A stretch of DNA of 64,000 nucleotides from an uncultured Chloroflexia bacterium (GCA_963715245.1 CAVQRM010000001.1:643188-707187), one strand, 5' to 3'. Counted from the stretch's first letter, positions 1 through 64,000 are shown. Translations and numbers: made by a program. The notes: generated from the sequence alone by a model not told the origin.

Positions 1-1
1 G

Positions 2-712
2 GGATGGGCGGACCGCTGGGGCCAGAACCCGGCCATGGTCACCAGCTTCGCCGACGGGACGAAGATCTCCTGCGAGCAGGCGATCGTCGCCAATGCGACG
101 GGGTTCGGCGTGCTGCAGCGCGGGATGTCGCGAGGTCTCGAGTTCTGCGAGCTGCCCGAGAAGCTCCCGGACCTGTATCTGCCGCGACTGGACGAGATCC
201 GGGAGCTCGGCGGTGTCATCGACTACACCGTCGGGACGATCGGAACGAAGGTGTTCGTGCTTGCCGAGCACCCGGATCCCAAGCAGCGCCACTACCTGGA
301 GCTGTACAAGATGGGCCCGGGCCCGCTGTACGCGTTCTGGGTGCCCTACCACCTCGTCCATTTCGAGGTCCCAAACGCCATTGCGCGAGTACGGGTGTTC
401 CGCGACAACCTGGCTCCGCCGCTCGCAGGCCCGGTGGTAGAGGTCTGCGCTGTCGCGAAGCGAGCGCTTGCCGCCGGCGAGATCCTTGACGAGTACGGTC
501 ACTACATGACGTACGGAGAGGCGGTGAATACCGACGAGATGTTCCGCGAGCAGTATCTGCCCGAGGGACTCGTCGAAGGATGCGTGCTTCGGCGCGATAT
601 CGCGCGCGACGAGGTGATCCGTTACGCAGACGTGCAACTGCCAGCCGGTCGCCTCGCAGACGCCCTCCGTTCCGAACAGTATCGTCACTTCCGCGGGTCG
701 AGCCCGATCTGA
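2..712 (+). CDS. C-terminal part of an NAD(P)-binding oxidoreductase with SAF domain (COG4091-like 'predicted homoserine dehydrogenase' family); 5' end lies outside the window
   Basis: ORF 35..712 stays open in the same frame back to the window edge. Coding-like GC3. Conserved C-terminal motifs (…GPGPLYAFWVPYHL…). Family assignment is from memory of motif patterns only. Confidence 0.35.
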   Translation, partial: GWADRWGQNPAMVTSFADGTKISCEQAIVANATGFGVLQRGMSRGLEFCELPEKLPDLYLPRLDEIRELGGVIDYTVGTIGTKVFVLAEHPDPKQRHYLELYKMGPGPLYAFWVPYHLVHFEVPNAIARVRVFRDNLAPPLAGPVVEVCAVAKRALAAGEILDEYGHYMTYGEAVNTDEMFREQYLPEGLVEGCVLRRDIARDEVIRYADVQLPAGRLADALRSEQYRHFRGSSPI

Positions 713-795
713 GCCGCGCCCCGGGGCGGACCTGTCGATCCCTGCCGGGACCTCGACCTGCGTATCCGCCCGGCGTCGCGGCTACACTCGGCCTC

Positions 796-1635
796 GTGCC
801 CTCGGAACAGATCGCGTCCAACCTTGCCCAGATCAACTGGACGGTCCTCAGCGCCCTCGCGGTCGGGTCGTTCGCGATCGTCACGCTCACGAGGCTGCTG
901 ACCCCCGCGACGAAGGGGTTTCTCGCCTTCACCGCGTTCTGCGCCGCCGCCTTCGGGTTCCTGGCCTACCTCTCGGACACGGGCCTGCCGCCGATCTCCG
1001 CGGGCTCGCCGGTCGTGGCGGATCCGACGTACGACATCCCGCGGCGGGCTGCGCTCGTGGTGTTCACGATCCTCGCGCTGGTCTCGACGCTCGCGATCGC
1101 GCGCGGGGCCAAGGCGACGATCCTGCTCGTCGCCGGGATGGCGGCGGGCGTGGCGGTGCTGCTGCTCGGCGCGCTGACGTGGGGCGGCGGCAGCCTTGGA
1201 ACGATCCCCCTGGCCGTCCAGCTGCTCGTGCTCGCCGTCGCGACCGGGGGCGTGTTCGCGGCGATGATCCTCGGCCACTGGTACCTCGTGACGCCGAAGC
1301 TGCCCGAGGGGCCGCTGGTCATGGTGTCCCACCGCCTGCTCTGGATCGTGGCGATCCAGGTGGCGCTGTTCGTCGGCTGGGTCGGGTTCGGGATCGGGCC
1401 GGGCGCCACCGGCGGTCCGTTCGCGGCGCTGGTGGGGGAGTGGGCGCTGTTCGTGTGGCTGCGGCTGATCGTCGGGCTGATCTTCCCGCTCATCGTGTCG
1501 TGGGCGGCGCTCCAGACGGCGAGGACGCGGTCCATGGAGAGCGCCACGGGGCTCCTGTACATCAACGTCGGGACGATCACGGCGGGCACGATCGTCGCGG
1601 CGGGGCTGTACTTCGGGGCCGGGCTGCTGGTATGA
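796..1635 (+). CDS. polytopic membrane protein of unknown function
   Basis: Hydrophobic helices across the 580..1635 ORF. GTG at 796 is the first plausible start after the upstream stop at 712. The antisense 401-aa ORF is a GC artefact. Confidence 0.45.
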   Translation: MPSEQIASNLAQINWTVLSALAVGSFAIVTLTRLLTPATKGFLAFTAFCAAAFGFLAYLSDTGLPPISAGSPVVADPTYDIPRRAALVVFTILALVSTLAIARGAKATILLVAGMAAGVAVLLLGALTWGGGSLGTIPLAVQLLVLAVATGGVFAAMILGHWYLVTPKLPEGPLVMVSHRLLWIVAIQVALFVGWVGFGIGPGATGGPFAALVGEWALFVWLRLIVGLIFPLIVSWAALQTARTRSMESATGLLYINVGTITAGTIVAAGLYFGAGLLV

Positions 1636-1645
1636 CGGTGTCGTC

Positions 1646-2465
1646 ATGACGCCGCCGATCGCCCCGCTCCGGATCCGCGTCCGCCTGTTCGCGATGCAGC
1701 GTGAGACGGCGGGCATGCGCGAGCTGCGCCTCGAGGTGCCGCTGGGATCCACGGTGGACGACGCCTGGAACGAGGTCGTGCGCCACGTGCCGGCGCTCGC
1801 GCCCGGGCGCGCGTCCCTCCGGTTCGCGGTCAACGGGGAGTACACGGACGAGGACCGGCCGCTCGCCGACGGTGACGAGATCGCGTGCATCCCGCCGGTC
1901 AGCGGGGGGTCCGGTGAGGACGCTCCGGACGCAGCGGCGCCCGGGCGCCGGCGGGTGCTGGAGATTCGCGCGGAGCCGCTGCCACGGGACCTCGCCGCGA
2001 CGCTGGCCGGGGAGCTGGCGACCGACGAGGACGGCGGCGTCGTGACGTTCGTCGGACGGACGAGGGTGACGCCCGGGACGCCGGCGCCTGGCCAGGAGGA
2101 GGAGGCCGCGCGCCACGCAGGGCCGAAGCGTCGAGGAGCTGGACTACGAGGCGTTCGAGCCGATGGCGATCCGGACCCTCGAGCAGATCGCGGACGAGAT
2201 CGAGGCGCAGTGGGATGTACGGCGGCTGGCCATCGTCCACCGGACCGGGCGGGTGCCGCTGGGGGACGCGTCCATCGTCGTCGTCGCGGTGTCGCCGCAC
2301 CGGGACGCGGCGTTCGCGGCCGCCCGCTACGCGATCGACGAGACGAAGGCCCGCGCGCCGATCTGGAAAGCCGAACGGTTCGAGGACGGCGTCGTGTGGA
2401 TCGGGCACACCGCGCGGACGGGACCCGACGCCGCAGCGAAGACGGAGCCCGCCGACCCGGCCTGA
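1646..2465 (+). CDS. moaX: MoaX-like fused molybdopterin synthase (MoaD sulfur-carrier domain ending in GG, then MoaE catalytic domain); apparent +1 frameshift inside the MoaE part (~2060-2130)
   Basis: N-terminal ~90 aa is ThiS/MoaD-like and ends …IPPVSGG. It continues in frame into MoaE-like sequence (…DEDGGVVTFVGRTR). The rest of MoaE (GRSVEELDYEAFEPMAIRTLEQIADEI…IVHRTGRVPLGDASIVVVAVSPHRDAAFAAARYAIDETKARAPIWKAE) is in another frame (ORF 2163..2465). The MoaD-MoaE fusion cleaved at GG is known from mycobacterial MoaX. Confidence 0.6.
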
Positions 2466-2546
2466 CCTGCCCACCACCATTCGGGTCCCGGCCGATCCCC
2501 CGAATGGCGCCCTTCCGCGGCGACCGACGCGCGCCATACTGCAGCC

Positions 2547-4132
2547 ATGCAGCCGATCGGGGAGCCGGAGCATCTCGAGGCGCTCGTCACGCGGACCCGC
2601 GCGCTTGCCGCGGCGTGGGGCGCAAGCGCGTCGAACGCGACGAGCGTCGGCCAGGAGCGGGCGATCCTGCGCCTGTTCGGCGTCAGCGGGGTGGACCGGA
2701 GCGGGCGCCCGCTCGCCGCCGAGGTCGTTGACCGGTACCTCTCGCCCGACCCGCGCCGACTGGCCGGCGGGATCGCGCTGCCGTTCGCGATGGCGATCGC
2801 CGAGTACGACCTGCGCGCCGCACGACCTCGCGCTCGAGGTTGCCGCGGGGAACGTGGACCTGGGCCTCGAGGCGGAGCTGCTCGCCGAGTCGGACCGGCG
2901 TGCCGTCGCGGTTGCCGACGCCACGCGCCTCGCGCGCGCCGCGCTTGACCGGATCGACGCGAACCGCACCGCGCGCCGCGAGCTGCTCGATGTCCTGGGC
3001 GACCCACCCCGGCCATGGCTCGGCGCGTCGCTCGCCTCACCGGCGATCGTGGATGCGCTCGACGAGGCCCGGCTCGCGATCGAGTCGGGTGCGGAGCTCG
3101 TTCGCGTGGACGTCCCGCCGAGCCGGGAGCTGGCCGAGCGGATGGCGCGCGCGGGCGCGCCGCTCGAGACGTGGAGCCCCTCTTCGACCTCCCGCGGCGG
3201 CCTCGATGCCTTCGACCCGGCCGGGCTGCCGATCCCCACGGGTTCCCAGCGCGCGCTCGCCGTCCTGCGCCGGTTCATCGACGAGGCGGGCGCGCGCCGT
3301 CGCGGCTACGTGCGGCTTGCGACCGATGCCCCGTCGCTCGCCGCGCCGGACCAGGCGGTCGTCGCCGCGTTCGAGCGGATCGACGTCGTCGTGGCGGATC
3401 CGATGCGCGAGATCGTGACGGGCCGCGTGGATCCGGATCGGGCGCTCGCCGACCACGTGTTCGCCCACCGTCTGCTCGCCCGCGCCGGTGCGCGGGTCCT
3501 GGTCCCGGCCGGGCCCTTGCTCGTGACCCAGGATCTCGCCTCGGGCATGCCCTCCGACCCCGCGACCCGCTCCGGCCGGGCGCTGGCCCTGCAGCTGGTC
3601 GGCGTCGCGCTCGCCCGGCGCGACGGGATGCCGGCGGAAGCCGTCGTCGTGGGTGCGCTGCCGGACTGGCTGATGGACGAGCCGGACGCCGCGGCCCGGG
3701 CCGCGGCCGAGATCGCGCTCCGTCGTGCGCTGCTCCCGGACCATGCGCTCGTGTTCGCCGAGCCGGCCCTGCGTGACGACGCGGCGGCCCGCTGGAACGC
3801 GGTCGTGGGGGCGCTGCTCGCGGACGCCGGTGACGTCGAGACGGTCGTTCGCCGGTCGCACACGACCCTCGCCGGGACGATGGCGATGCGCGACGTCGCC
3901 TCGAGCCTCGCGCAGGCCAGGGTCGCACCGGCCACTCTCCGGCGTTGCCGCGGCTCATGCGGCCGGCGCGGTCGCCGCGGCCCTGGCGACGCTCGGCGCG
4001 CTCGAGGATCGCGGATGGGGTGCGCTCGTCGATCACCCGCTGGGGATCCAGGCGAGCATCGGCGCCGAGGCCGTTGCCGAGCGGACCGAGTCCTTCGATC
4101 CCCTCGCGATCGAGGCCGCGTCCCGGGCGTAG
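2547..4132 (+). CDS. lysine 5,6-aminomutase alpha-subunit (KamD)-like protein, ~528 aa reconstructed across three frames (apparent frameshifts ~2815 and ~3935)
   Basis: Frame-0 N-terminus (…SVGQERAILRLFGVSGVDRSGRPL…) resembles the KamD N-terminal motif. The body lies in the frame of ORF 2215..4515 and the C-terminus in the frame of ORF 3725..4132. Total length matches KamD (~520 aa). No adjacent B12-binding beta subunit. Confidence 0.4.
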
Positions 4133-9796: not shown

Positions 9797-10845
9797 TCAG
9801 CTGCCGGCGGACCCGTCGATCTCGATCGTGACGGTCATGTTCCAGCGCAGGCCGGCGGGTACCTCGCCCGTCGGCGCGACGACCACGCGGAACGTGATGT
9901 CGCCCTGGACCGAGGCGCCGTAGCCGCCGACCGACTCGACCGTCCCGGCGATCTCGCTGCCGGGGAGCGCGTCGACGGTCACGGTCGCCGGCGCGCCCAC
10001 GGATACCCGCGCGACCGACGACTCCGACAGGTCGCTGGTCTCGAACCGCCACTCGGTCGGGTCCGCGAGCCGTACGAGCACGACGCCCGGCTGGACGCGG
10101 TCCCCGACCTGGGGCTCGATCGACACGACGGTCCCGGCGAACGGCGCGGTGATCGTGAACTGTCCACGCGCGATGGTGGCGGCCTCGAGCGCCGCCTGGG
10201 CCCGTGCCTGCTCGGCCGTCGCGGCGGCCACGGCGGCCTCGGCCGCATCCACGCCGGCGCGCGCCTGCGTCCGCTGCGCCCGGGCCCGGTCGAGGGTGGC
10301 GGCCGCCTGGTCGACCTGGGCGTCGAGCTGTCGCTCCTGGGCCGAGGATGCGGCGTTGGGCAGGGCATCCCGGGCGGCGATCGCGGCACGCCGGGCCGCT
10401 GCCGCTTCCTCGGCGCCCGCCTGCGCCGCGTCCGCGGCGGCGCGCGCCTGGCCAGGGCGGCTTCGGCCTGCGCGACGCCGGCCGTGGCGGCCTCGACCGC
10501 CGCCTCGGCCTGGGCCACGTCACCGTCCACGGTCGCCGTGTCGAGCCCCAGCAGCACGTCGCCGGCGGCGACGGTGTCGCCCTCCATGACCGGCAGCGAT
10601 GCCACCGTGCCCACGACGCGGGCCTGGAGCTCGATCGCCCGCGCGGGGACGGCCCGGCCCTCCGCGACGACGCCCGAGTCGGCCGGGATGACGCCCGGTG
10701 CGGACGCCTCGGGGGATGCCTCGGCGGTCGCACCCCCGAACGCGCCGTTCGCGACCGCGACCGCCACGGCGATGCCGATGACGACGACGGTGATCAGCCC
10801 GATGGGCAGCATCGAGCGGCGGCGCGGGGAGGGGTCAGCGGTCAT
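9797..10845 (-). CDS. efflux membrane-fusion (periplasmic adaptor, HlyD/MacA-like) protein; apparent frameshift ~10440 in an Ala-rich coiled-coil region
   Basis: N-terminal TM + …VVAEGRAVPARAIELQARVVGTVASLPVMEGDTVAAGDVLLGLD… (ORF 9979..10845). C-terminal beta-barrel part …FTITAPFAGTVVSIEPQVGDRVQPGVVLVRLADP… is in ORF 9797..10252. Confidence 0.65.
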
Positions 10846-19500: not shown

Positions 19501-21514
19501 GTGTTCTCGTCGGTCCTGGTCGCCAACCGCGGGGAGATCGCGGTCCGGGTGGTACGCACCTGCCGGCGCCTAGGGATCCGGACCGTGGCCGTGTACTCGG
19601 ACGCCGATGCGCGGGCGCCGCACGTGCGGACCGCCGACGCCGCAGTGCGGCTGGGTCCCGGTCCAGCCGCGGAGAGCTACCTGCGTGGCGACCTCGTGAT
19701 CGAGGCGGCGCTCGCGTCGGGCGCCCAGGCGGTGCACCCGGGGTACGGGTTCCTCGCGGAGAACGCGGCGTTCGCGGAGGAGGTCGAACGGGCCGGCCTC
19801 GCGTGGATCGGGCCGCCGCCCGCCGCGATGCGCGCGCTGGGTGACAAGGCGCGGGCGAAGGCGCTCGCCGAGGCGAACCGTGTTCCCGTGCTAGCGGGCT
19901 ACCACGGTGACATGGCAGCAGACGACGACCTCGTCGCGGCCTCCGCGTCGGTCGGCTACCCGCTCCTGGTCAAGGCGAGCGCGGGCGGTGGCGGGCGGGG
20001 CATGCGTGTGGTGCGGGAGGCGGCCGGCCTGCCGGACGCCCTGGCGGCCGCGCGGCGGGAGGCGGCGGCCGCGTTCGGCGACGACCGGCTGCTGCTCGAG
20101 CGGTACGTGGAGCGGCCGCGCCACGTGGAGGTGCAGATCCTGGGCGATACGCACGGGACGCTCGTCCATCTCGGCGAGCGCGAGTGCTCGATCCAGCGGC
20201 GGCACCAGAAGCTGATCGAGGAGTCTCCGTCGCCCGCGGTCACGCCGGCGCTCCGTGCGGCGATGGGGGACGCCGCGCTCCGCCTCGCGCGGGCGGCCGG
20301 CTACCGGAACGCGGGCACGGTCGAGTTCCTCCTCGACGAGACCGGCGGGTTCTTCTTCCTCGAGGTCAACGCCAGGCTCCAGGTGGAGCACCCGGTCACG
20401 GAGGCCGTCACGGGGCTGGACCTCGTCGAGCAACAGCTGCGCGTCGCCGCCGGCGAGCCGCTCGGGTTCGGGCAGGCCGACGTCCGCCTGGACGGGGCGG
20501 CGATCGAGGTCCGGGTCGTCGCCGAGGACGCGGCGGCCGGGTTCCTCCCGGCGACCGGCAGGGTGACCGCGTTCGACGTGCCCGACGGGGTCCGCGTGGA
20601 CACGGGCGTCGAGGCCGGCACGGAGGTCTCGCCGTTCTACGACTCGCTCGTGGCCAAGCTGATCGTCCACGCGACGGACCGGGCCGAGGCGCTCGACCGC
20701 CTCGGAGAGGCCCTCGACGGCGTTCGGCTCGAGGGCGTCGCCACGAACCTGGACCTGCTCGCGGCGGTCGTCTCGGAGCCCGCGTTCCGCGCCGGTGACC
20801 TCCACACGGGCTTCCTCGAGGAGCATGGCCTGGTGGCCGGGCTGTCGGCCGTCGAATTCGACGGTGGTCGCGGCGGCCGCGGCCGTGCGGTCACTGGCGC
20901 CGGCCCGTGCCGATCTCCGCGGTGGCCCAGGGGCCCGGGGCGCGTGGGCGGCGGGGCGCCCGTGGCGGCTCGGCGGGATCGGGGAGCCGACCCGCTGGAT
21001 CGCCGGTGGCCGGACGGTGGACGCGGTCACGGACCGGACCGGGTCCGGCGGGACAGGGGTCGTGCGCGTCGACGGGGCGGTGATCGAGGTCATGCTCGTC
21101 GGGACCGACGAAGACGGCTGGACCGTCCTCGTCGGGGGCCGGCCCGCGCTGGTCCGCCCCGCGACGGGGGCACGGGTCGTGGACACCGTCACCGTCGGCG
21201 GACGGCGCCATCGGCTGCGGCTCGCGCCGCCTCCCTCACCCGAGGCACTGGGCCCCGACTCGGACGAGCCCGACGCGCTCGCGGCCCCGATGCCCGGCCG
21301 GATCGTCCGCATCCACGTCGCGGAGGGTGATCACGTCGTCGCGACCGACCCGTTGCTGGTGCTCGAGGCGATGAAGATGGAGCATGTGATCGCGGCGACG
21401 GCGCCCGGTCGCGTCGCGCGGCTGTTCGCCGCCGTCGGCGACCAGGTGGGGCGAGGCGACCCGCTCATCGAGCTCGTGGCGGCCGGCGACGACGACCCGC
21501 AGGGAGACGACTGA
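19501..21514 (+). CDS. methylcrotonyl-CoA/acyl-CoA carboxylase alpha subunit (biotin carboxylase + BCCP); apparent frameshift ~20870 between BC and BCCP domains
   Basis: ATP-grasp biotin carboxylase (…YPLLVKASAGGGGRGMRVV…EVNARLQVEHPVTE…) in the frame of ORF 18292..21330. Biotinyl domain with EAMKME in ORF 20795..21514. Confidence 0.7.
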
Positions 21515-32519: not shown

Positions 32520-32528
32520 CACGTGGAG

Positions 32529-40923: not shown

Positions 40924-41632
40924 ATGCTGTCCTTCGGTGACCTGCTCGCCACCCTCTACGAGTACCGCGTGCTCGCCGCCGTCGCGTCGGCGGTCGTGGC
41001 CGCCACCATCCTCCTCGTTGCCTGGCGGGCCGGCTGGATCGCGGCGCTCCGCCGCCGTCCCCGTCTTGCCATCGGCCTGGCCGCCGTCGCCCTCGTCGTC
41101 GGCCTGCCGATCACCTGGTACCTGGCCTCCCCGCTGTTCATCCGCACCGAGCTCGTGGAGCCGCCGCCAGTCGCGGCCGTCGTGGCCACGCCGGCGCCCG
41201 AGCCGTCGACCAGCAGCCACGCCCGCACCGACCGCCTCGTCCTCCGGCCGCGCCCCCGTCGTCACGGTCGAGCCGACCGAGGCCCTGCCGACGCCGGAGC
41301 CGCTTGCCGCCCCGCGCTCGGGGTCGTTCAACGGCACGGACGAGTTCCACTTCGGGCGCGGCACGGCGACGCTGATCGAGACCGCCCCCGGCGAGTGGAC
41401 GATCCGCCTCGAGGACTTCAGCGTCCGCAACGGGCCGGACCTGTTCGTCTACCTGTCGCCGGACGCGAAGGACTACGCGAAGGGGGCGATCGAGGTCGCG
41501 CCGCTCAAGGCGACGGACGGGAGCTTCAACGTCCCGCTCCCCGCCGGGATGGACCCGTCGGACATGGAGAGCGTCCTCATCTGGTGCAAGCAGTTCTCGC
41601 ACCTGTTCGCCTGGGCGACGCTGGAGGCCTGA
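40924..41632 (+). CDS. membrane-anchored DM13-domain protein; apparent frameshift ~41225 in the linker
   Basis: N-terminal TM segments in ORF 40876..41754. DM13 domain (…GSFNGTDEFHFGRGTATLIETAPGEWTIRLEDFSVRNGPDLFVYLSP…) in the frame of ORF 40607..41632. Confidence 0.55.
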
Positions 41633-41714: not shown

Positions 41715-42918
41715 ATGCAGGCGCACGCGATCACGCTGCTCGGAACCGGTCTGATCGGCGACTTCTACACGATGACGCTCCACGGGCAGCGCGGGCGTGA
41801 CCGCGTGCGGGTCGTCTACTCCAGGAGCGAGGGTCGCGGCGACGCCTTCCGGGAGCGCTGGGACATTCCGGAGTCCACGACGGACATGGAGGCGGCGATC
41901 CGCCATCCCGACACGGACGTCGTGATCGTCGCCCTGCCGAACCACCTCCACGAGCAGGCGGTCAAGGCCGTCGCGGCCGCCGGCAAGGCGGTCCTGTGCA
42001 CGAAGCCGCTCGGGCGCACGGCGGACGAGGCCCGGCGGATGCTCGAGGCCGTCGAGGCGGCCGGGGTCTTCGGCGGGTACCTGGAGGATCTCTGCTACAC
42101 GCCCAAGACGCTCAAGGCGATCCGGTCCGTGCGAGGACGGCGCGCTCGGCGACGTGACGTGGGTCCGCTCGCGCGAGACGCACCCGGGACCCCACAGCGC
42201 GTGGTTCTGGGACGGCCGGCTGACGGGCGGCGGCGCGATCATCGACCTCGGCTGCCACTGCATCGAGATCATCCGCAACTTCGTGGGCAAGGGGAACCGG
42301 CCGGTCTCCGTCATGTGCCACACGGACACGCTCGTGCACCCGATCGACGACGAGGACAACGCCGTCGCGCTCATCCGGTTCGAGTCGGGCGCGATCGGCC
42401 AGTTCGAGGTGAGCTGGACGTTCCGCGGCGGCATGGACCTGCGCGACGAGGTGGCGGGCACGCACGGCACGATCTGGCTCAACCACTTCCTGCGCACGGG
42501 CTACGAGATGTTCACCGCGGGCGGGTCCGGTGGGTACGTCGCCGAGAAGGCCGAGACCGCGGCCGGCTGGCTGTTCCCCGTGGGCGACGAGGTGTCCGAG
42601 CTCGGCTACGTCGACATGTTCTCGGACATGTTCAACGCGATCGACGGCGCCCGGGCGCCCCAGGAGACGTTCTACGACGGGTACGTCGTCAACGCGGTCA
42701 TGGACGCCTGCTACCGGTCCGCGAAGAGCGGCGCGTGGGAGCCCGTCGACCTGTTCGAGTGGCGCGGCGGCACGACGGCGCGGATCGGGAGCGAGCCGGA
42801 GCTGTACGAGGGGTTCGTCGTGATCAAGCGCGAGGTGCTGCCCGGACGGGCGCGAGAAGCTGATCCTCAAGGACCCGGCGAGGGCGACTTCGTGGACAGG
42901 GTCGTCGCCGGGGCGTGA
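41715..42918 (+). CDS. Gfo/Idh/MocA-family NAD(P)-dependent oxidoreductase (copy 1); apparent frameshift ~42140
   Basis: Rossmann N-terminus (…[13 protein letters not shown]…[14 protein letters not shown]…) in ORF 41715..42863. C-terminal alpha/beta domain in ORF 42154..42918. Confidence 0.65.
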
Positions 42919-43641
42919 CCGGGACGGCCCCCCGGATCGAGGTCCTCCCGGCTCGGGAGTGGGCTGCCGTTGTCGCCGCGACGCTCCTGGAACGACTCTC
43001 GGCGAACCCGCGCCTCCGCGTCTGCCTGCCGACCGGCGACACGCCCTCGCCGGTGTACGGACGGCTCGCCGAGGCCGACCTCGCCGACGGGCGCCAGCTG
43101 GGCGCAGGCGACCGTCGTGCTGCTCGACGAGTGGGCAGGCCTCCCGCCGGGCGATCCGGCACGCTGCGACGCCCGGCTGCGGCGCGAGCTGCTCGACCGG
43201 CTCGCGCCCCCGCCGCGCGTTCGTCCCGATCGACGTCGACGGATCCGACGCCGCGATGGCCGCGGCGGCACATGACGCTGCGGCGCCGGGACCTCGATCT
43301 CGCGGTCCTCGGCCTGGGGATGAACGGGCACGTCGGCTTCAACGAGCCCGGGTCGCGCCCGGACGACGGCACCCGTCTCGTCCGGCTGGCCGCGTCCTCG
43401 CGCGAGGCGGCGACGAGCCGCTACGGCGCGAGCGCCGTCCCCACGGCCGGGATCACGGTTGGCCTGGCCCGGCTGCTGGAGGCCCGGGAGGCCTGGCTCC
43501 TCGTCACGGGGGAGCGGAAGGCGCGCGATCCTGCGACGCGCGCTCCGTGAGCCGGAGGGGCCGGACTGTCCGGCGTCGTACCTGCGGCGCCACCCGGCGC
43601 TGACGGTGTTCGCGGACGAGGCTGCCGCCGCGCTCCTCTGA
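42915..43641 (+). pseudogene. glucosamine-6-phosphate deaminase/6-phosphogluconolactonase (NagB/Pgl)-family gene disrupted by ~4 frameshifts
   Basis: Family motifs scattered over three frames: …LPTGDTPSPVYGRLAE… (frame 0), …WAQATVVLLDEWAGLPPGD… (frame +1), …LGLGMNGHVGFNEPGS… (frame 0), C-terminal …PASYLRRHPALTVFADEAAAALL (frame +1). Confidence 0.5.
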
Positions 43642-43662: not shown

Positions 43663-44973
43663 CCGTCAGGCGAGGGCGACCTCGGGCATGCCGGCGGGGC
43701 CGCCGGCCGCGAGCCAGCCCTCGATCGCATCGCGCGAGAACAGCTGGTCGACGACCAGCGCCGAGGTGCCGATGACGCCCGCCGAGCATCCCGAGCGACG
43801 AGCGCTGGATCACCAGCGATCGCGTCGCGAGCGGGAGCGAGCGGCCGTAGACCGTCTGGCGGATCGCCGCGAGGAGCTGGTCGCCGCTCTGCGCGACGCC
43901 GCCGCCGATGACGATCAGCGACGGGTTGAAGAAGTTGACGACGCTCGCGAGCATCTGGCCGACGCGCTGGCCCGCCTCCTGGAGCATGCCGATGGCGACC
44001 GGGTCGCCAAAGGCGGCTGCCCGCGCGACGTCCTCCGCGGTCACGGTTCCCCGTTCGTCGAGCGCCGCGGCCATGCGTGCGCTCAGGCCCCGGGCGGCCG
44101 CCGCCTCGCCCTGGATGCGGAGCGCATGACCGCCCGCGAGCGCCTCGAGACAGCCGACGTTGCCGCAGCGGCAGACCACGGATGGGTCGTCGACCACCTG
44201 GATGTGGCCGACGTCGCCCGCGCTTCCCTGGGCGCCGCGATGGAGGCGGCCGTCGGAGATGATGCCGGCGCCGATGCCCGTCCCGATCTTGACGACGACG
44301 ACGTTGTCGTGGCCCTGCGGCGATACCCGACCGCCACTCGCCGAGCGCGAGGACGTTGACGTCGTTGTCCACCCACACCGGGGCATCGAAGCGCTCGGCG
44401 AACCGCTCGCGGATCGCATAGCCGTCCCAGCCGGGCATGATCGGCGGCGAGATGGGCCGGCCCGTCGCGAACTCCACCGGTCCCGGCACCGCCGACGCCG
44501 ACGCCCCAGACCGGGATCGCGAGGTGCTTCGAGGTGTGCTGGAGCTGGGTGAACAGCTCCTCGACGCGGCCGAGCACGACCTCGGGTCCATCGGCGATGT
44601 CCGCGGGCTCCGTGTAATGGCCGAGGATGCGCCCGTCGAGATCGGTGATCGCGACGTCGATGCTCGTCGCCCCGAGGTCAGCGACCAGGACCTGGCCGGC
44701 ATCCGCCTGGAACGCGAGCTGGCGGGGCGGACGGCCACCCGTGCTGGGACCGACGTCGCCCTCGGTGACGAGCCCGCGGTCCAGCAGCTCCTGCACCCGG
44801 CGGGCGACGATCGCCCGCCCGAGGCCGGTCCGCGTCACGAGCTCCGAGCGGGACCGCGACCGGCCCAGCCGGATCTCGTCGAGGACGACGACGAGCGCGT
44901 CGAGCACCTCGTCCGGGAGCGCATCCAGGGGCCGCTGATCCGGCGGCCGTTCGAGCTGCTGCACGGAACGCAT
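43663..44973 (-). pseudogene. ROK-family (NagC/XylR-like) transcriptional regulator/sugar kinase gene with several frameshifts
   Basis: N-terminal wHTH (…SELVTRTGLGRAIVARRVQELLDRGLV…) and ROK motifs (…VKIGTGIGAGIISDGRLHRGAQGSAGDVGHIQVV…CRCGNVGCLEALAGG…) split between ORFs 44083..44997 and 43421..44419 and a third frame. Confidence 0.55.
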
Positions 44974-45161: not shown

Positions 45162-46338
45162 GTGACCGAGATGGTGCGCCGGAGCGACATCAGCACCGCC
45201 GTCATCGGCAGCGGGTTCATCGGGACCGTGCACATCGAGGCCCTCCGCCGGATCGGCGTGCAGGTCGCCGGCCTCCTCGAGTCCACGCCGGAGCTCGGCG
45301 CGAGGCGCGCCGCGGAGCTCGGCCTGCCGAAGTCGTGGGACAGCCTTGACGCCGTCCTCGCGGACCCGACGGTCCAGGTCGTCCACGTCACCAGCCCCAA
45401 CGAGCTCCACTACGAGCAGGCGTCCGCGATCCTCGGCGGCCGGCAAGCACGTCATCTGCGAGAAGCCGCTCGCCATGACGTCGCAGGAGTCCGCGGCGCT
45501 CGTCGCGCAGGCCGCGGCGTCCGGGCTCGTCAACGCCGTCAACTTCAACATCCGGTTCTACCCGCTCAACCAGCACGTCGCCCAGCTCGTGCGCGACGGC
45601 GGGGTGGGGGACGTCCGCTTCGTCAACGGGCGCTACTTCCAGGACTGGCTGCTGTTCGACACGGACTGGAACTGGCGGCTCGAGAAGGACAAGGGTGGTG
45701 CGCTGCGGGCGGTCGGCGACATCGGGAGCCACTGGCTGGACCTCACCTCGTTCCTCACCGGGCTGCGCCTCGAGGCCGTCATGGCCGAGCTCACGACCTT
45801 CATCCCGGTCCGCCAGAAGCCGGCCGGTCCCGTGCTCACCTTCTCGACCGAGCGGGCGGCGGAGACCGTGCCCGTCGAGATCAACACCGAGGACACGGCG
45901 ACGATCCTGCTGCGCTTCGAAGGCGGCGCTCGCGGCAGCGTGGCCATCTCCCAGCTCAGCCCCGGCCGCAAGAACAGCATCGTCTACCAGATCGACGGCT
46001 CCTCCTCCGCCGTCGCGTGGGATTCGGAGCAGCCTGAGCAACTTTGGATCGGTCATCGCGACCGTCCGAACGAGCTGCTGCTCCGAAACCCCGCGCTGAT
46101 GAACGGCGCGGGGGCCGCGGCAGCCCGCCTGCCCGGCGGCCACGTGGAGGGCTTCGCCGACACGTTCGGCGCGGTGTTCGGCGCCGTCTACGACGACGTC
46201 ATCGCCGGTCGCCCGTCCGCCGACCCGCGCTACGCGACGTTCGCCGACGGCCACGAGGAGATGCTCGTCGGCGACGCGGTCCTCGAGAGCTCCCGGACGG
46301 GCCGCTGGGTCGAGATCGCCCGCGGCGCCGGCGCATGA
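45162..46338 (+). CDS. Gfo/Idh/MocA-family oxidoreductase (copy 2); apparent frameshift ~45430
   Basis: …TAVIGSGFIGTVHIEALRR… N-terminus in ORF 45162..46037. Remainder (…GKHVICEKPLAMT…) in ORF 45346..46338. Confidence 0.7.
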
Positions 46339-46381: not shown

Positions 46382-47297
46382 ATGAAGCTCGGCTTCCTGA
46401 CCGCCCCGTTCCCCGAGACGCCGCTGATGGAGGTGGCCGACTGGGCCGCCGGCGTCGGGTTCGAGGTCCTCGAGATCGCCTGCTGGCCCCGGAGCGGAGG
46501 CGACACCCGCCGCTACGCGGGCACCAGCCACATCGACGTCGCCACGCCTCTCCGCGTCGCAGGCGCGCGACATCCGGGCCGAGATCGAGGGCAAGGGCCT
46601 CGCCATCTCGGGCCTCGGCTTCTACCCCAACCCGCTCCACCCGGACCCGGCCCATCGCGACCAGGTCATCGGCCATCTCAAGCTCGTGATCGACGCGGCC
46701 GAGAAGATGGACCTCCCGCTGGTGAACACGTTCATGGGCGGTGACGGCGCCCTGAACCAGGACCAGAACTGGGAGCGGGCGCTCGAGATCTGGCCCGACA
46801 TCGTCAGCTACGCGCAGGACCACGGCCGGAAGATCACGCTCGAGAACTGCCCGATGCTGTTCAGCTACGACGAGTGGCCGGGCGGGCACAACATCGCGAC
46901 CTCGCCCCGGATGTGGCGCCGGATCCTGGAGCAGTGGGGCGGCACGATCGGGCTCAACTTCGACCCGAGCCACCTCATCCTCCAGATGATCGACATCCGC
47001 CGGTTCCTCGTGGAGTTCGGGCCGCACGTCCTCCACTACCAGGCGAAGGACCTGATGATCGACCGCGACGGGCTGTACGAGCGCGGCATCTTCAGCATGG
47101 GCATGGGCTGGCAGGTCCCGCGGATCCCCGGCCTGGGCGACGTGGACTGGAGCGTCGTCCACGGCGAGCTGTACCGGGCCGGCTACGAAGGGGACTGCAT
47201 CATCGAGCACGAGGACCGCCGCTTCGAGGGGACCGACGAGAAGGTCAAGCAGGGGTTCCTCATCGCCCGTGACGTCCTTCGTCCGTACTGCCATTGA
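46382..47297 (+). CDS. sugar phosphate isomerase/epimerase (xylose-isomerase-like TIM barrel) family protein; apparent frameshift ~46565
   Basis: MKLGFLTAPFPETPLMEVADWAAGVGFEVLEIACWP… in ORF 46352..46744. Remainder (…KITLENCPMLFSYDEWPGGHNIATSP…) in ORF 46686..47297. Confidence 0.65.
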
Positions 47298-48180: not shown

Positions 48181-49242
48181 TGCCGCCGGTCGGCGTCGGG
48201 ATGCTCGGCTGCGGCTTCATCGGCGAGTTCCACGCCCTGGGCCTGCGGTACGTGGCCGACGCCAGGCTCGTCGCCGCGTGCGACGCCAGCCCGGAGCGCG
48301 TGGCCGGGTACACCGAGCGGTTCGGCGGGCGGCCCTACGCGACCGTCGAGGAGCTGTGCGCCGACCCCGACGTCGACCTCGTCGTCGTCTCGCTGCCCAA
48401 CCACCTGCACCGCGAGGCCGTGCGCACGGCCGCCGCCGCGGGCAAGGGCGTCGCGTGCACCAAGCCGCTCGGGCGCAACGCGACCGAGGCGGCCGACATG
48501 CTGGCCGCGGTCACGGACGCCGGCGTGTTCAACGCCTACCTCGAGAACGTCATCTTCAACCCGGACCTGCTGCGGATGCGCGAGATGGTGGAGGCCGGCG
48601 CCATCGGCCGCCTGACGACCGCACGCGCGCGTGAGGGCCACTCGGGTCCGCACGCGGCACACTTCTGGGATGCCGAGCTGGCGGGGGGCGGGGCGCTCCT
48701 CGACATGGCGTCGCACGGCGTGGAGTACGCGCGGTTCCTGTTCGGCAAGGACGCTCGCGGTCGCCGACGTGTTCGCGTGGGGCGCCACCCTCGTCCACGG
48801 CGAGCGGACCACTGGCGAGGACAATGCGGTCATGGTGATGCGCTTCGAGGACGGGCGCGCCGCGACGATCGACGTCTCGTGGTCGTCGAAGGGCGGGCTC
48901 GAGGGCCGCTTCGAGGCCTACGGGGACGCCGGCCGGCTGATCACGGACATCAGCGTCGGGTCCCTCAAGGCGTTCGTGGAGCGCCCGGCAGGCTACGTCG
49001 TGGAGAAGGCCGACGCCGAGACCGGCTGGGTGTTCCCGGTGCCGGACGAGGTGCGCGTCCACGGCCACGACCTGATGATGGCCGACGTGATCGACGCGTT
49101 CCGAAGCGGCCGCGCCCCGAAGGAGACGTTCCGCGACGGCTTCGCCGTGAATGCCGTCCTCGACGCCGCGTACCGATCGCTCCGCAGCGGCACCTGGGAG
49201 CCCGTGGCGACGACCCCCGTGCCCGCGATGGCCGCCTCGTGA
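48181..49242 (+). CDS. Gfo/Idh/MocA-family oxidoreductase (copy 3); apparent frameshift ~48760
   Basis: ATG overlapping deoC stop (TGATG). …VGMLGCGFIGEFHALGLR…VVVSLPNHLHREA… N-terminus in the long ORF 47889. C-terminal part in ORF 48631..49242. Confidence 0.7.
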
Positions 49243-54866: not shown

Positions 54867-54914
54867 GGCGGGGCCCCGGGCGTCGTCTGGGCCCGTTCGC
54901 TCGCTCGCCCGCAC

Positions 54915-54952: not shown

Positions 54953-55130
54953 GGCGGGTGAACGAGCGCACCGTGCATCGTCTGACCCGGCCGCCGGGAC
55001 ATCCGTCCCATGCGCGGCGTCACGGTGCGATGGCCGTGCCGCGGGGCGGGTGGATCGTCGCGCCATGCATCCATACGCCCGCTGGGCGGGCGGGGACGCG
55101 GACGCAGCGCAGGTGGGGATGCGGCCCGCG

Positions 55131-55175
55131 GACGGCGAACGCCCCGGCCGGGGGGGATGACCGGGGCTTCGCCGA
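55131..55175. terminator. extended GC-rich hairpin (CGGCGAAcGCCCCGG … CCGGGGCTTCGCCG, one bulge) between convergent permease and flavoprotein genes; candidate bidirectional terminator
   Basis: Inverted repeat read directly, ending ~10 nt before the minus-strand stop at 55186. Confidence 0.35.
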
Positions 55176-55185
55176 AGGGTGAGGC

Positions 55186-57363
55186 TCAGTTGCGGGCGGC
55201 GGCGGCCTCCTGGAGCTCGCGCATCCGGACCGTCGAGTACGAGGGCCCTTCCTCGCGCGTCAGCTGGGCAAGCACGTCGATCGGCAGGTCGTCGACGATC
55301 GCCCCGTTGGGGTTGAACAGCAGGTGCTCGTCCACGGCGAGCCCGAACGCCGAGCCCTCCTTGACCGCGTGGTACAGGTTCCGCGGCGCCACCGAGTCGC
55401 CCACGTTGAGGACGTGGACGCCGGCCGCCTTGAGCTCGGTGAACAGTCCGATCTCCGGCCGGGTGTGGCAGGTGACGACGTCGTCCACCTCGATCTCGGA
55501 GCGTCCGAAGTCGCTGCCCTGGAGCACCACCCGGGTCCCGTCGATCTCCGCCACGGTCGTCGACGTGATCACCGTGACGGGATGCTTGTACGGCCGCGAC
55601 GAGAGCACCTCCGCGTCGCCCTGCGCGAAGCGCTTGCGCAGGACGTACATGTGGATGACCTCGCAGTCGGCCGCGAACTCCCGGTTCTCGGTGACGATCG
55701 TGACCTCGCGGCCGATGTCGGCCAGCCACGCGGCGGTGTCGGCGGCCGCGTACGAGTCGCCCCACAGCAGCACCCGCTGGCCGACCTTGCGCATCTTCCG
55801 GCCGCCGGGATGGCACTCGCAGGCGATCTTCGGGCAGGCCATCGTCTCCTCGAACGGCACGACCCGCGACGCGTCGCCGACGACCGGCGGCACGTACGAC
55901 GCGGCACCGGTCGCGTTGAGCACGAGGTCGAAGCCCGCGCAGCTCCTCGACCGTCGGCGCGTGGTTCAGCCGCACGTCCACGTGGAGGTCGAGCACCTGG
56001 TCCCGGATCCAGTCCAGGTACCAGCGCATCTTCTCCTTGCCCGGGACCATGCACACGTACTTCATCGCCCCGCCGAGCTCACCGGAGCGCTCGAACAGCG
56101 TCACGAGGTGGCCGCGCTCGGTCGCGATCCGCGCCGCCTCCATGCCCGCCGGCCCGCCACCGACGACCGCGACGCGCACCGGGCGCTCCGTCCGCCGCAT
56201 GTCGTCATAGGCGGGGTTGCCGCACGCCGCGTTGATCGAGCACGCGATCTCGTGCTTCGCCATCAGCGACTCCTGCCAGCAGCCGCCGAGGCAGGAGATG
56301 CACTTGCGGATCGACTTCGTCCGGCCGTACTGCGCCTTGACCGGCCAGTACGGGTCCGCCAGGAGCTGGCGCGCGAGGCCGACGAGGTCCGTCTTGCCCT
56401 CGGCGAGGATCTGCTCGCAGTACTCGGGGTCGCGCAGCGAGTGCGAGGTGATGACCGGGATCTTCACCACGGCCTTCGTCGCCTCGGCGGCGTAGGTCGC
56501 CCAGCCCTGCGGGTACTGCATCGGGTCGAAGCCCGCGCCGGGCGACTCCTGCATGCCCTGCGCTGAGGTCGAGCGCCGCGACACCGGCCCGCTCCAGCAC
56601 CCGCGCGGTCTCGAGACCCTCCTCCATGTCGCGGCCGCCCGGGCACCACTCCTCGAACGAGTACCGGACGAGGATCGGGTATCCCTTGCCGCACTTCTTC
56701 TGGATCGAGTCGATGACCGCGAGCGGGAACCGCATCCGGTTCTCGAACGAGCCGCCGAAGCGGTCCGTCCGCATGTTGAGGTAGGGGCTCATGAACTCCG
56801 ACAGCAGGTAGCCGTGGGCCGCGTGGAGCTCGACCGCGTCGAAGCCCGCCTGCTTCACGCGCCAGGCCGCCTCGCTGAACAGGTCGACGAGCTCGAGGAT
56901 CTCGGCGATCGATGCCTCGCGGATCTCCTTGCCCTTCTCCTCGGCGTTCTCGTACACGATCTCGTGGCCCGCGGACCACGGGAGCTTGAGGACCCGGTCC
57001 GTTGCGCCCAGCGTGTTGTAGCGGGGGATCGCGCACTGGCGCCCCGGGTGCTGGAGCTGGACTGCGCACTTCGCGCCGTAGCGGTGCATCGACTCCGCCA
57101 GGCGGGCGAGGCCCGGGACGTAGTTGTCGCCGTCGGCCACAAGGCAGGTCACGGTGGGCCGGCCGGTCTTCATGTCCGGCGTCGTCGCGCCGACGATGAC
57201 GAACCCGGTCCCGCCCTTCGCGATGTTCGCGTGGTGGTGGATGTCGCGCTCGCTGACCTCGCCGTCTGCATGGGAGGAGCTGATGTCCGTCGGGACGTGG
57301 ACGATGCGGTTGGGGAGCGTGAGGCTGCCCAGCTGCAGGGGGCTGAACATCGTGCGGGAACGG
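55186..57363 (-). CDS. OYE-like NADH:flavin oxidoreductase fused to an FAD/NAD(P)-binding domain (2,4-dienoyl-CoA reductase / DgcA dimethylglycine demethylase / StcD N-methylproline demethylase / trimethylamine dehydrogenase family); two apparent frameshifts (~56575, ~55935)
   Basis: N-terminal TIM barrel MFSPLQLGSLTLPNRIVHVP…HAAHGYLLSEFMSPYLNMRTDRFGGSFENRMRF… (ORF 56205..58202 frame). 4Fe-4S linker + FAD region …RKCISCLGGCW…VAVVGGGPAGMEAA… (ORF 54839..56584). NAD(P) domain (ORF 55186..55923). Confidence 0.65.
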
Positions 57364-61567: not shown

Positions 61568-62561
61568 CTACGCGGAGAGGGCGCGGTCCAGCCACGCGGC
61601 GTCGAGGCGGCCGTCGGCGAGGGCTGCGCGGTAGGTGTCGATCGTGGCGGCGACCCCGTCGGCGAGCGGCGTCTGGGGGACGTGGCCGAGGGCGACTTCG
61701 AGTGGCCATCCGTCGAACGCGCTGGGGAAGGGGAGGACCCGGTCCTCGAACGTGATCGTCCCGAGCGATGCCGGTGCGGCCGCCTCGATCGCGTCGACGA
61801 TCTCGGCCACGCCGACCGCCGGCCCCGGGAGGCTGAACACGTGCGCGCCGTCGAGGTCCGCGCGCGCCGCGGCGACGAACGCCCGGGCCGCATCCTCGGC
61901 GAACTGGAACTGGTACCGCCCGCCGAAGTTGACGTGGTAGTCGCGCCCGGCCGCGGCCGCGATCATGGCGACGGTCGGCTTGGAGGTCACGCCCTGGTCC
62001 CGCCCCGGGCCGTAGACCGAATGGGGACGGAGGCCGATGCTCGCGACGCCCTCGGTCTCCCATGCGACGCGGGCGCCCTGCTCGTTCGCGACCTTGTACA
62101 CGCCGTACCACGAGGTCGGGTAGAGCTCCGCGTCCGGCGGGAGGACGTCGACGCCGTAGCGCGCCGCCGGGCCGTAGACCGCCGCGCTGCTCGCGTACAC
62201 GAGCCGCCCGATGCCGAGCCGCCGGGCGAGCTGGAACATCGAGACCGTGCCCTCGACGTTGACCCGTGCGCCCTTGATCGGGTCGGCGGCGCAGAACGGG
62301 AACTGGAGCGCCGCGAGGTGGACGAGGCGGGTGATGCCGCGGTCCCGCGCGACGGCCTCGAGCGCAGCGATGTCCAGCAGGTCGCCCTCGACGACGTCGA
62401 GCGCCGGCCAGCTCGGAAGGGGAGAGGACGAGCGCGAGCCGGTCATGCCGGCCGCTCGACGTGAGCACGGTGACCGGGGCCCCCTCCCGGACGAGCTGGC
62501 GAACGACCCACGAGCCGATGCAGCCCGTGCCGCCCGTGACGAGGAAGCGATCGCCGACCAT
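61568..62561 (-). CDS. NAD-dependent epimerase/dehydratase family protein; apparent frameshift ~62440
   Basis: N-terminal MVGDRFLVTGGTGCIGSWVVRQL… (ORF 61479..62561). Body with …YASSAAVYG…Y…K… (ORF 61568..62908 frame). Confidence 0.6.
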
Positions 62562-62571
62562 CGCCGCCGCC

Positions 62572-62857
62572 TCAGGCGACCCTGGTGTACGCGACGATCT
62601 CCATGCCCTCGTGGAGCTCGTTGAGCTCGGGCTGGAGCCCCTGGTGGATGGGGCTGGTCCGCCACGCTGCCGCCTGGTCGGCGGTCTCCCAGCGGAACAC
62701 CATCTGGTAGCGCTCGGGGTGCTCGGCCTCGCGAAGCAGGCCGCACTCGATGAGACCGGGGAGATCGAGCACGGGCGGCCGGTAGCGCTCGGCGAAGAAC
62801 TCCTCGAAGTCCGCCGTGCGGTCGGGAAGAACCGCGAAGGACACGTGCCGCTCGATC
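62572..62857 (-). CDS. ABM (antibiotic-biosynthesis-monooxygenase-like) / Dabb-fold small protein
   Basis: ~95 aa: MIERHVSFAVLPDRTADFEEFF…YQMVFRWETADQAAAW…. Confidence 0.45.
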
Positions 62858-62892
62858 ATCACGCAGGCTCCCACTGAAATTGGCCTTACCAG

Positions 62893-62921
62893 TTGACGAC
62901 TTTATCACCCGGGCCTAGCAT
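62893..62921 (+). promoter_or_regulatory. sigma70-like promoter TTGACG-17 nt-TAGCAT ending 8 nt before the GntR ATG (near-leaderless transcript predicted)
   Basis: Read directly in the AT-richer divergent region between the ABM and GntR genes. Confidence 0.3.
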
Positions 62922-62928
62922 CCCGTCA

Positions 62929-63718
62929 ATGGCCGTCGACACCAGCGATCGATCTGCTCCTGTGCCCGCGTCCGCGCCCTCGCCGGCGTGGCCGACGTTC
63001 GCGCTCGTCAACCGGAGCACCCTGCCCGAGGAGATCGCCGCGCGCCTGCTCGACCTGATCCGCGCCGAGCGGCTCCGGCCGGGCGACAAGCTCCCTGCGG
63101 AGCGCGAGCTCGCCGCCGCGATGCAGGTCAGCCGCCCGGTCCTGCGCGAGGCGCTCCGGGCACTTGCGATCATGAAGGTCGTCGAGATCCGGCAGGGGGC
63201 CGGGACGTACATCACGGCGCTCGAGCCGCAGCAGCTCGTCTCTCACCTCGACTTCGTGGTCTCCAAGGACCCGGTTGCGCTCGCCCAGGTCATCGAGACC
63301 CGGCGGGTCGTGGAGGTCGGCAACGTGCGGCTGGCCGCCGAGCGGATCGACGACGCGGGCATCACCCGCCTTGAGGCGCTGCTCGCGGAGCTCCGCGGCG
63401 CCGTCGGCGACGCGGACCGCTTCAGCACCCTCGACATCGCGTTCCACGACGCCGTGTGCGATGCGGCGGGCAACTTCCTGCTCGCGCAGTTCATGGCGAT
63501 CATCGACACGCTCGGCAAGGTCAGCCGGGAGCGCACGGGGGCGAACCGCGCGGACGCGCGAGCTCGCGCTCGCCGACCACGAGTCCATCCTGTCCGCGCT
63601 GCGCCTGCGGGACGCGGACGCCGCCGCCGCAGCGATGACCGCCCACCTCGACCACGTGGAGGCCGCCCTCGTCGCGGCCGCACCCGCGGCGAAGCGATCG
63701 CAGGACGCTGCGCGGTGA
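62929..63718 (+). CDS. GntR/FadR-family transcriptional regulator; apparent frameshift ~63550 in the FCD domain
   Basis: wHTH …LPAERELAAAMQVSRPVLREALRALAIMKVVEIRQGAGTYI… C-terminal FCD helices partly in ORF 63275..63718. Confidence 0.7.
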
Positions 63719-64000
63719 ACGTCCACGGCAGCCACCACCTCGACGCCTCACGCGACGTCGTGTTCGGCGCGATCCGCGACCCACGGGTCCTGCTCGAGGT
63801 CATCCCCGGCATCGAGGCCGTCGAGGAGGTCCAGCCCCGACGAGTACGAGGGTCGGATGACGCTCCGCCTGCCCGGCGCCGTGGGCACGTACCGCACCCA
63901 TGTCCGCCTCGTTGACGTCGTCGCGCCCGAACGGGCGGCGCTCGACGGCCGCGTCGAGGGCTCGATGGGCACCATCGAAGGGTCCGCCCGGTTCGCGCTC
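63715..64000 (+). CDS. CoxG-like SRPBCC protein, 3' end outside window; apparent frameshift ~63835
   Basis: GTG overlapping upstream TGA. VNVHGSHHLDASRDVVFGAIRDPRVLLEVIPGIEAVEEV… then …YEGRMTLRLPGAVGTYRTHVRLVDV… in ORF 63456.. frame. Confidence 0.45.

Follow-up and report, generated by a model that had tools for sequence, protein, structure and literature searches.

The window analysed here, a stretch of 64,000 nt with a GC content of 73%, carries conserved genes whose protein similarity jumps repeatedly between reading frames, and the question is whether such breaks belong to the organism or to its assembly. The frame switches were traced with a six-frame codon-usage dynamic programme together with an open-frame check, and were assessed by codon usage, by Pfam domains or solved structures lying across the junctions, and by alignment, at DNA or protein level, to as many as 42 relatives. 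In total, 28 one-base frame changes are situated in 19 of approximately 58 genes, which amounts to 0.48 changes per kb of coding DNA. The original prediction had claimed about 28 frameshifts; exactly 28 were recovered, including every switch that it listed, all within approximately 30 nt of its positions. Twenty-six of them are +1 changes (an extra base) and two are −1 changes (a missing base), a bias (binomial p = 3e-6) that is the strongest signal in the data and that the prediction had overlooked. At each switch, the pre-junction frame remains open far past the junction; hence, the junctions are not gene boundaries. The codon signal is kept on both sides of every junction, and taking out or putting in exactly one base yields a full-length product for all 28 events. 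The repaired genes show full Pfam or structure coverage, and neither in-frame stops nor IS elements or larger lesions were found in the 19 affected genes.

Because 26 of the 28 events consist of a single extra base, a signature encountered here only in Nanopore-only assemblies of relatives, the frame changes are most likely consensus errors and not the marks of dying genes. With a probability of approximately 0.9, they represent consensus insertion errors of a Nanopore-only assembly of the Flye plus Medaka type. On this reading, a deposited long-read metagenome assembly of a Candidatus Limnocylindria (Chloroflexota) genome would carry a spurious extra base at almost all of the event sites. It was most probably built from Nanopore reads alone with Flye and a single Medaka round, the procedure used for the Microflora Danica MAGs; the window's own contig would share this Nanopore-only technology. 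A near-identical independent assembly was found neither in the genome collection (91% amino acid identity at best) nor among metagenome contigs (74% for RACo) or JGI sequences (90% amino acid identity for protein P0001, 88% nucleotide identity for contig L124). Since the closest sequences are only 90–91% identical in amino acids and 88% in nucleotides, the artefact is inferred rather than observed.

In the first half of the window, the MoaD–MoaE fusion gene (1646–2465) carries a +1 insertion at 2117..2124 (plus strand), where the window reads GCAGGGCC against GC-CGGCC in three relatives; the MoaE Pfam stretch crosses this junction, and the event also appears in the DNA alignment to L121–L123. 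The lysine 5,6-aminomutase alpha-like gene (2545–4132; 1590 nt, plus strand) contains a G inserted between T and C at 2811..2815, seen as one gap column at 2813 against L121, L122 and L123 and spanned by the Lys-AminoMut_A stretch, and a second +1 insertion at 3930..3934 with a single gap column at 3932; apart from these two insertions, its length equals that of the three relatives. A −1 deletion is located at 10450..10460 (minus strand) in the membrane-fusion (HlyD-type) gene (9813–10867), where the window has a one-base gap against L121–L123 and tblastn gives a shift of −1. In the acyl-CoA carboxylase alpha gene (19487–21514), a +1 shift at 20840..20880 (plus strand) separates the biotin carboxylase part from the BCCP part. 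The frame passes from +0 to +1 and the old frame stays open for a further 470 nt; after repair, residues 5–665 align in one stretch to PDB 9yx0_D. The third MttB-family gene (26500–27917) has a +1 insertion at 27757..27761 (minus strand), placed by DNA alignment and spanned by the MTTB Pfam stretch 3–460, with ORF support from two relatives' loci only (at 27762). In RACo (28100–29791, plus strand), a +1 insertion at 28927..28931 (26 supporting loci, DNA alignment, best repair at 28929) is followed by a −1 deletion at 29380..29390 (13 supporting loci) that brings back the original frame; at the latter site, the window shows a one-base gap against seven relatives in the DNA alignment. The MTHFR gene with a C-terminal DUF5981 (29885–31468) carries a +1 insertion at 31084..31089 (plus strand; 17 supporting loci, DNA alignment). 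In the pterin-binding MtgA-like gene (31451–32519, plus strand), +1 insertions lie at 31870..31875 (best repair 31872–31873) and 31907..31913 (DNA alignment, repair scan), corresponding to two separate one-base gaps on the relatives' side of the DNA alignment. Relatives' ORFs from 11–26 loci are split over two window frames at 28930, 29384, 31077 and 31892.

The remaining events lie between 41 and 64 kb. The DM13-domain gene (40862–41632) has a +1 insertion at 41186..41243 (plus strand, best repair at 41219) within a poorly conserved linker, and successive parts of the L001 ORF match frame 1 and frame 2. The first Gfo/Idh/MocA oxidoreductase (41715–42918) contains a +1 insertion at 42129..42134 (plus strand; 30 loci, DNA alignment, repair scan). 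The NagB-like gene (42915–43641, plus strand) bears four +1 insertions, at 43085..43089, 43218..43224, 43283..43289 and 43521..43526, with event points at 43087, approximately 43221, approximately 43286 and 43523. All four were placed by three-frame comparison with L001, L061 and L064 and by four-site repair. A single-frame model of this gene, in which Pfam matched the C-terminal half alone, was rejected once the three-frame comparison gave the four events. The ROK-family gene (43669–44926, minus strand) carries three +1 insertions, each placed by DNA alignment: at 43780..43786 (19 loci), at 44311..44318 (28 loci), where GCAGGGCC again stands against GC-CGGCC in the relatives, and at 44487..44493 (19 loci); the ROK Pfam stretch crosses all three junctions. 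The NagB-like, ROK and MtgA-like genes thus bear four, three and two events, respectively. Single +1 insertions, likewise placed by DNA alignment on the plus strand, occur in the second Gfo/Idh/MocA oxidoreductase (45151–46338) at 45432..45438 (42 loci), in a xylose-isomerase-like TIM-barrel gene (46375–47297) at 46543..46547 (38 loci; AP_endonuc_2 spans the junction) and in the third Gfo/Idh/MocA oxidoreductase (48176–49242) at 48751..48755 (22 loci). The OYE-type flavoprotein gene (55189–57350, minus strand) was hit twice, by a +1 insertion at 55931..55939, possibly GG to GGG (nine loci, DNA alignment), and by another at 56559..56563 (eight loci, DNA alignment). The NAD-dependent epimerase gene (61571–62572) has a +1 insertion at 62409..62413 (minus strand), with the Epimerase Pfam stretch across the junction and a single relative, L025. 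The GntR/FCD regulator gene (62993–63718) and the CoxG-like gene (63711 to the window end) show +1 shifts from frame +0 to +1 at 63540..63575 and 63815..63850 (both plus strand); the FCD stretch 99–218 spans junction residue 187 and the COXG stretch 6–87 crosses junction residue 40.

That the frame jumps lie inside conserved genes, as originally claimed, is borne out by Pfam domains, the solved structure and the relatives' intact ORFs, all of which span junctions. After frame joining, single Pfam stretches cross the junctions for MoaE, Lys-AminoMut_A, MTTB, Pterin_bind, ROK and AP_endonuc_2, and further for the RACo middle and C-terminal domains, GFO N and C3, Oxidored_FMN, Pyr_redox_2, Epimerase, FCD and COXG. 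Intact ORFs of relatives (8–42 loci) fall in two window frames at 42118, 43784, 44314, 44486, 45445, 46546, 48752, 55934 and 56548, and DNA alignments locate events to within a few bases.

Indel errors in long-read consensus sequences are a much-discussed problem of Nanopore and PacBio assemblies, and the textbook Nanopore error is one of homopolymer length. The original expectation that the events are roughly evenly spaced and that many fall in G/C homopolymer-rich stretches does not hold in either respect. The events are significantly clumped (variance/mean of 2.5 in 4-kb bins, P = 0.002), with seven of them inside 2 kb, in nagB–ROK (P = 0.004). Among 19 precisely placed insertions, 11 are unlike both flanking bases and the others lie in runs of two or three bases only; none of the twelve runs of six or seven bases, the longest in the window, coincides with an event. 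The clusters at 27.7–31.9 kb and 41.2–48.8 kb may represent local coverage drops or strain mixture, where polishing would fail.

Ten of ten intact window proteins were located by cluster look-up on one contig of 1,411,123 bp, deposited at NCBI and ENA, whose source pattern is that of Microflora Danica MAG contigs; exact look-up of three intact proteins and of the DeoC-like protein in the contig index gave no hit. The truncated MttB product of 378 aa (P0136) and the MetF read-through ORF of 720 aa (P0167) are on the same contig, so that at least two frameshifts are in the public record. A length of 1.41 Mb for a contig from this soil lineage points to long reads, and, with frameshifts already present, its length and source pattern make a long-read assembly very probable. 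Among ten guessed frameshift-dependent ORFs, one was found in the public collection and nine were not, the probable reason being that gene calling started them at other codons. The Nanopore-only Microflora Danica assemblies of related Limnocylindria, compared at 43 loci (421 kb), show 24 +1 events and no more than one doubtful −1 event, distributed over 14 loci. The 37 loci from other assemblies (286 kb), mostly with short-read assembler names, show no more than one doubtful event, or 0.003 per kb at most. In the Nanopore control loci, too, approximately half of the events have no adjoining identical base, and L121, a Flye-named ENA contig, has +1 events of its own at positions other than those of the window. 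The window rate, far above what chance or ordinary pseudogene content would give, is approximately eight times the mean of the Nanopore control loci, and the worst of these (e.g., L031 with five events) come near it. The inserted bases look nearly random in position relative to their neighbours, as they would had the window been corrupted in silico after deposition; however, the MttB and MetF ORFs already exist publicly and independent public Nanopore MAGs carry the same signature, leaving such corruption scarcely credible.

The original attribution to indel error in an uncorrected long-read assembly is accordingly the favoured one, given the public contig with its frameshift-dependent ORFs and the shared signature of Nanopore-only MAGs. 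Microflora Danica was assembled from Nanopore reads alone, using Flye and a single pass of Medaka 1.8.0; its low-coverage MAGs were noted to have a lower coding density (PMC12313526). A review describes frameshifts in low-depth long-read metagenomes without short-read correction and echoes the textbook emphasis on homopolymer-length errors (PMC13543314). The window resembles these published cases (PMC12313526; PMC13543314) in the single-base indels that split intact genes, the per-kb rate that varies between MAGs, the restriction to long-read-only assemblies in the clade and the megabase contig, but differs in that nearly all of its events are insertions and most lie outside homopolymers. The related Nanopore MAGs examined share this non-textbook signature. 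The frameshifts are most likely a quality flag and not biology. Gene calling would wrongly report one third of the genes here as truncated, fused or pseudogenes, as with the truncated MttB and the MetF read-through of the public record; a related contig carries a chimeric MoaE–aminomutase ORF. Gene loss, novel fusions or low coding density reported from this MAG, or from Nanopore-only high-GC MAGs like it, should carry no weight before the assembly is polished. The +1-only, non-homopolymer signature offers a practical diagnostic; as the errors are not in homopolymers, homopolymer-aware correction will not fix such assemblies.

Pseudogenes of reductive evolution are known from Mycobacterium leprae, in which, as in the window, interruptions affect approximately one third of the genes. 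A genuine and very recent pseudogenisation, in which the organism, or the nagB–ROK pair and a few other genes, is losing accessory metabolic functions, would accommodate the seven events in two adjacent sugar genes, the presence of frameshifts in the deposited record and the absence of core housekeeping genes from the affected set, which consists entirely of accessory metabolism or regulators. A URO-D-like gene in the window has also lost approximately 560 bp in frame; this internal deletion is a lesion of a different kind and counts against the artefact, as do the rate above the controls, the clumping and the lack of homopolymer association. Bacterial mutation is, however, expected to be deletion-biased, opposite to the 26:2 excess of insertions, and the window, in contrast to M. 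leprae, shows a single type of lesion without nonsense codons or loss of codon bias. The repaired proteins are no more diverged than intact ones (median identity to the short-read MAG GCA_038245845.1 of 78% for repaired versus 84% for intact neighbours, Mann–Whitney p = 0.17); repair of the flavoprotein, which was hit twice, gives 92% identity to L001. No event is common to any of the relatives compared, of which the nearest are only approximately 80–90% identical, and the event type, common in Nanopore assemblies, is absent from the 286 kb of mostly short-read-named ones. Pseudogenisation is, therefore, improbable. The suggestion that the nagB/ROK clustering reflects genuine decay finds no support: all seven events are +1, and the repaired full-length NagB and ROK are 76% and 75% identical, respectively, to the short-read relative (L001 for NagB). 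It is similarly doubtful that the insertions are non-random, some of them flagging a sequence context, or a modification of the DNA, at which the Nanopore basecaller or polisher adds a base in Limnocylindria, or that the nagB–ROK cluster is a real, very recent inactivation amid errors.

Programmed +1 frameshifting is known from prfB, where one base is skipped to read the protein. If the window genes were recoded in this manner and functional as written, the same fix, skipping one base, would serve nearly all events, and the downstream frames are indeed intact and conserved. The window nevertheless lacks the conserved shift site and stop of prfB: the old frame continues for hundreds of bases, leaving the sites with neither a stop nor a rare codon, and no common shift motif was found across the event sites beyond a borderline CGCA/TGCG (seven seen versus 1.6 expected, p of approximately 0.04 after correction). 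The orthologues in up to 42 relatives are unshifted at these positions and up to four sites fall in one gene of 730 nt, so recoding is extremely unlikely. No tRNA or Rfam RNA usable as a non-coding indel test was found in the window. Some contexts do recur, as an insertion-prone sequence context would have it: GC-CGGCC is read as GCAGGGCC at 2117–2124 and 44311–44318, with GCGCAGGGC at approximately 56556–56564, and CGGGC-type contexts recur in related MAGs. The window contains 11 copies of GCAGGGCC versus 5.5 expected, only two of them at events, and GCCGGCC occurs 114 times without trouble.

Because the window has a GC content of 73%, long open frames exist in all six frames and a list of ORFs alone is uninformative. 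The true frame was followed through codon usage in two ways, by a GC3 frame plot and by a six-frame dynamic programme trained on the window's long ORFs, in which in-frame stops are forbidden. A same-strand switch is read as a gene boundary where the old frame ends at a stop, and as a frameshift where the old frame runs on. Every position of the original prediction is recovered as such a switch, beyond which the old frame continues without a stop for tens to hundreds of bases. Its count is borne out, at 28 events in 19 of about 58 genes (only coding indels are visible to the methods, and any in non-coding DNA would raise the true error rate), and none of them is more than about 30 nt from the coordinates that it gave.

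In a Pfam scan of the joined frames, single domain matches bridge the junctions in MoaE, Lys-AminoMut_A and MTTB, the RACo middle and C-terminal domains and Pterin_bind are matched across theirs, and the ROK match bridges all three of its junctions. Junctions are likewise bridged by the GFO N-terminal and C3 domains, AP_endonuc_2, Oxidored_FMN and Pyr_redox_2, and by the Epimerase, FCD and COXG matches. The HlyD-type protein, the oxidoreductase Gfo1, the carboxylase and MTHFR-DUF5981 possess a normal architecture split over different frames, half in each. After repair, the carboxylase aligns continuously over residues 5–665 with a biotin carboxylase subunit of known structure (669 residues). 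The gene labelled MoaX (1646–2465, + strand) earns that label, joining the small and large subunits of molybdopterin synthase (ThiS/MoaD and MoaE domains); the MoaD–MoaE fusion also exists in relatives, as proteins of 274 aa.

With the intact DeoC-like protein as query, species-representative genomes yield 80 loci (amino-acid identity 78–91%), all from Candidatus Limnocylindria/Limnocylindrales (Chloroflexota) MAGs. A metagenome scan with RACo adds 40 further loci, and three loci syntenic with the left end of the window are reached by protein search with the repaired aminomutase; no sequence closer to the window than about 90% identity was found. The relatives' ORFs were translated and compared with the window frames. 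In the right half, nine junctions are each crossed by single ORFs that match two window frames (from 8–42 different loci); the RACo-to-MtgA region has four such junctions (11–26 loci), and the MttB junction at 27762 is supported by only 2 loci. DNA alignments to relatives locate the events to a few bases; the two in MtgA are 38 nt apart. For events 20861, 63558 and 63834 the support comes from codon usage together with a domain or structure alignment, and not from alignment of relatives' DNA; event 62411 is based on a single relative, and event 41219 is situated within a poorly conserved linker. The four events expected in NagB are confirmed, the frames running A, B, C, A, B, and with four single bases removed the gene encodes a full-length protein of 240 residues that shares 76% identity with the closest relative.

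The direction of the events, which the original prediction overlooked, is nearly uniform: 26 place one extra base in the window and 2 lack one (binomial p = 3e-6), the latter at 10455 in the HlyD-type gene and at 29384 in RACo. At 11 of the 19 precisely placeable insertions the base is unlike both flanks, such as T in CC[T]CA, A in CG[A]CG and G in T[G]C, and the remaining 8 could have lengthened a run, though to no more than 2–3 bases. No event is located at any of the longest runs of the window, three of 7 bases and nine of 6. An origin in homopolymers, as had been argued, thus fails, and so does the supposed even spacing, the variance/mean being 2.5 per 4 kb (P = 0.002). Event-free stretches of 6–10 kb are present, and nagB and ROK together contain seven events inside 2 kb (P = 0.004). 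The three 7-base homopolymers (24236–24242, 46343–46349 and 55150–55156) are all intergenic, where coding frames cannot judge the true length.

No sequence motif at the event sites survives multiple-test correction, and the k-mer enrichment at insertion sites is borderline. The relatives' GC-CGGCC reads GCAGGGCC in the window at two sites (2117–2124, + strand; 44311–44318, − strand), and their GC-CAGGGC reads GCGCAGGGC at about 56556–56564 (− strand). Such a recurrent insertion context possibly reflects systematic basecaller or polisher error.

The single-base events aside, the 19 affected genes contain no in-frame stop; their domain coverage is full, and the codon signal is intact on either side of each junction. 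In the aminomutase gene, 1590 nt compared with three relatives reveal no length difference beyond the single-base events. Once repaired, the affected genes match their orthologues in GCA_038245845.1, a short-read MAG of a relative, over the whole length, with a median identity of 78% compared with 84% for unaffected genes (Mann–Whitney p = 0.17), and the flavoprotein, hit twice, has the highest conservation of all (92%). No event is common to the window and any relative. Genuine pseudogenisation, by which the frame changes would be real lesions, is unlikely, with a small residual probability for the nagB–ROK cluster, in view of the lesion spectrum, the intact and conserved state of the affected genes, and an occurrence specific to sequencing technology. 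Programmed +1 frameshifting is practically ruled out by the lack of a shift site, by unshifted orthologues and by the presence of up to four sites in one gene.

In the public protein collection, 10 of 10 intact window proteins are found, all on one 1,411,123-bp NCBI/ENA contig, a length which for a soil Chloroflexota MAG implies long reads. The same record contains two frameshift-dependent ORFs, a 378-aa truncated MttB (entry P0136) and a 720-aa MTHFR read-through (P0167); hence, the deposited sequence includes at least events 27759 and 31086. In-silico corruption of the window is contradicted by these ORFs.

As a reverse control, the window proteins were searched against the relatives' loci. 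Over 421 kb, the 43 loci from Microflora Danica, a Nanopore-only MAG set, show 24 clean +1 frameshifts and a single doubtful −1, distributed over 14 loci, compared with one doubtful event in 286 kb of the 37 other loci, which mostly bear contig names of the MEGAHIT or SPAdes type. The event contexts in the Nanopore loci resemble those of the window, about half being without an adjacent identical base and several being of the CGGGC type. From this pattern and these controls, consensus insertion error in a long-read-only assembly is the best explanation, with a probability of about 0.9, in agreement with the indel error of long-read assembly originally proposed. Microflora Danica MAGs are Nanopore-only Flye assemblies with one round of Medaka 1.8.0, and coding density is reduced in those of low coverage (PMC12313526); a review has also noted frameshifts in low-depth long-read metagenomes without short-read correction (PMC13543314).

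Among the loci of related Nanopore-assembled MAGs, L022, L023, L024, L031, L044, L046, L047, L053, L069, L071, L077, L078, L080 and L121 have +1 frameshifts of their own at unrelated positions, as many as 5 of them within a single 20-kb locus (L031). In L121, an ENA contig with a Flye-style name whose +1 events are at other sites, gene calling merged MoaE with the aminomutase in a chimeric 451-aa ORF (P0081).

Judged by sequence, 22711–35851 holds a putative gene set for demethylation of quaternary amines or methylamines to methyl-tetrahydrofolate in a Limnocylindria genome, comprising three MttB-family genes without an in-frame stop, two corrinoid proteins, RACo, MTHFR with DUF5981, a pterin-binding MtgA-like protein and DUF1638. 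This block appears to be absent from the closest short-read relative, since about 8 kb of its contig corresponds to about 18.6 kb of the window. The URO-D/MtaA-like methyltransferase gene (35288–35851, − strand) codes for only 188 aa. The relatives' ORFs (about 408 aa) match it through residues 19–156 and 344–408 in the same frame, about 187 codons (about 560 bp) being lost in frame with a junction at about 35453–35482, a loss that may be either genuine or the product of a collapse in assembly. In addition, a sugar-catabolism cluster at 41715–57350, syntenic in many Limnocylindria MAGs, consists of three Gfo/Idh/MocA oxidoreductases, a NagB-like isomerase/deaminase, a ROK regulator or kinase, a xylose-isomerase-like TIM barrel, a DeoC-type aldolase, a SIS protein, a four-gene ABC sugar transporter and an OYE-type flavoprotein.
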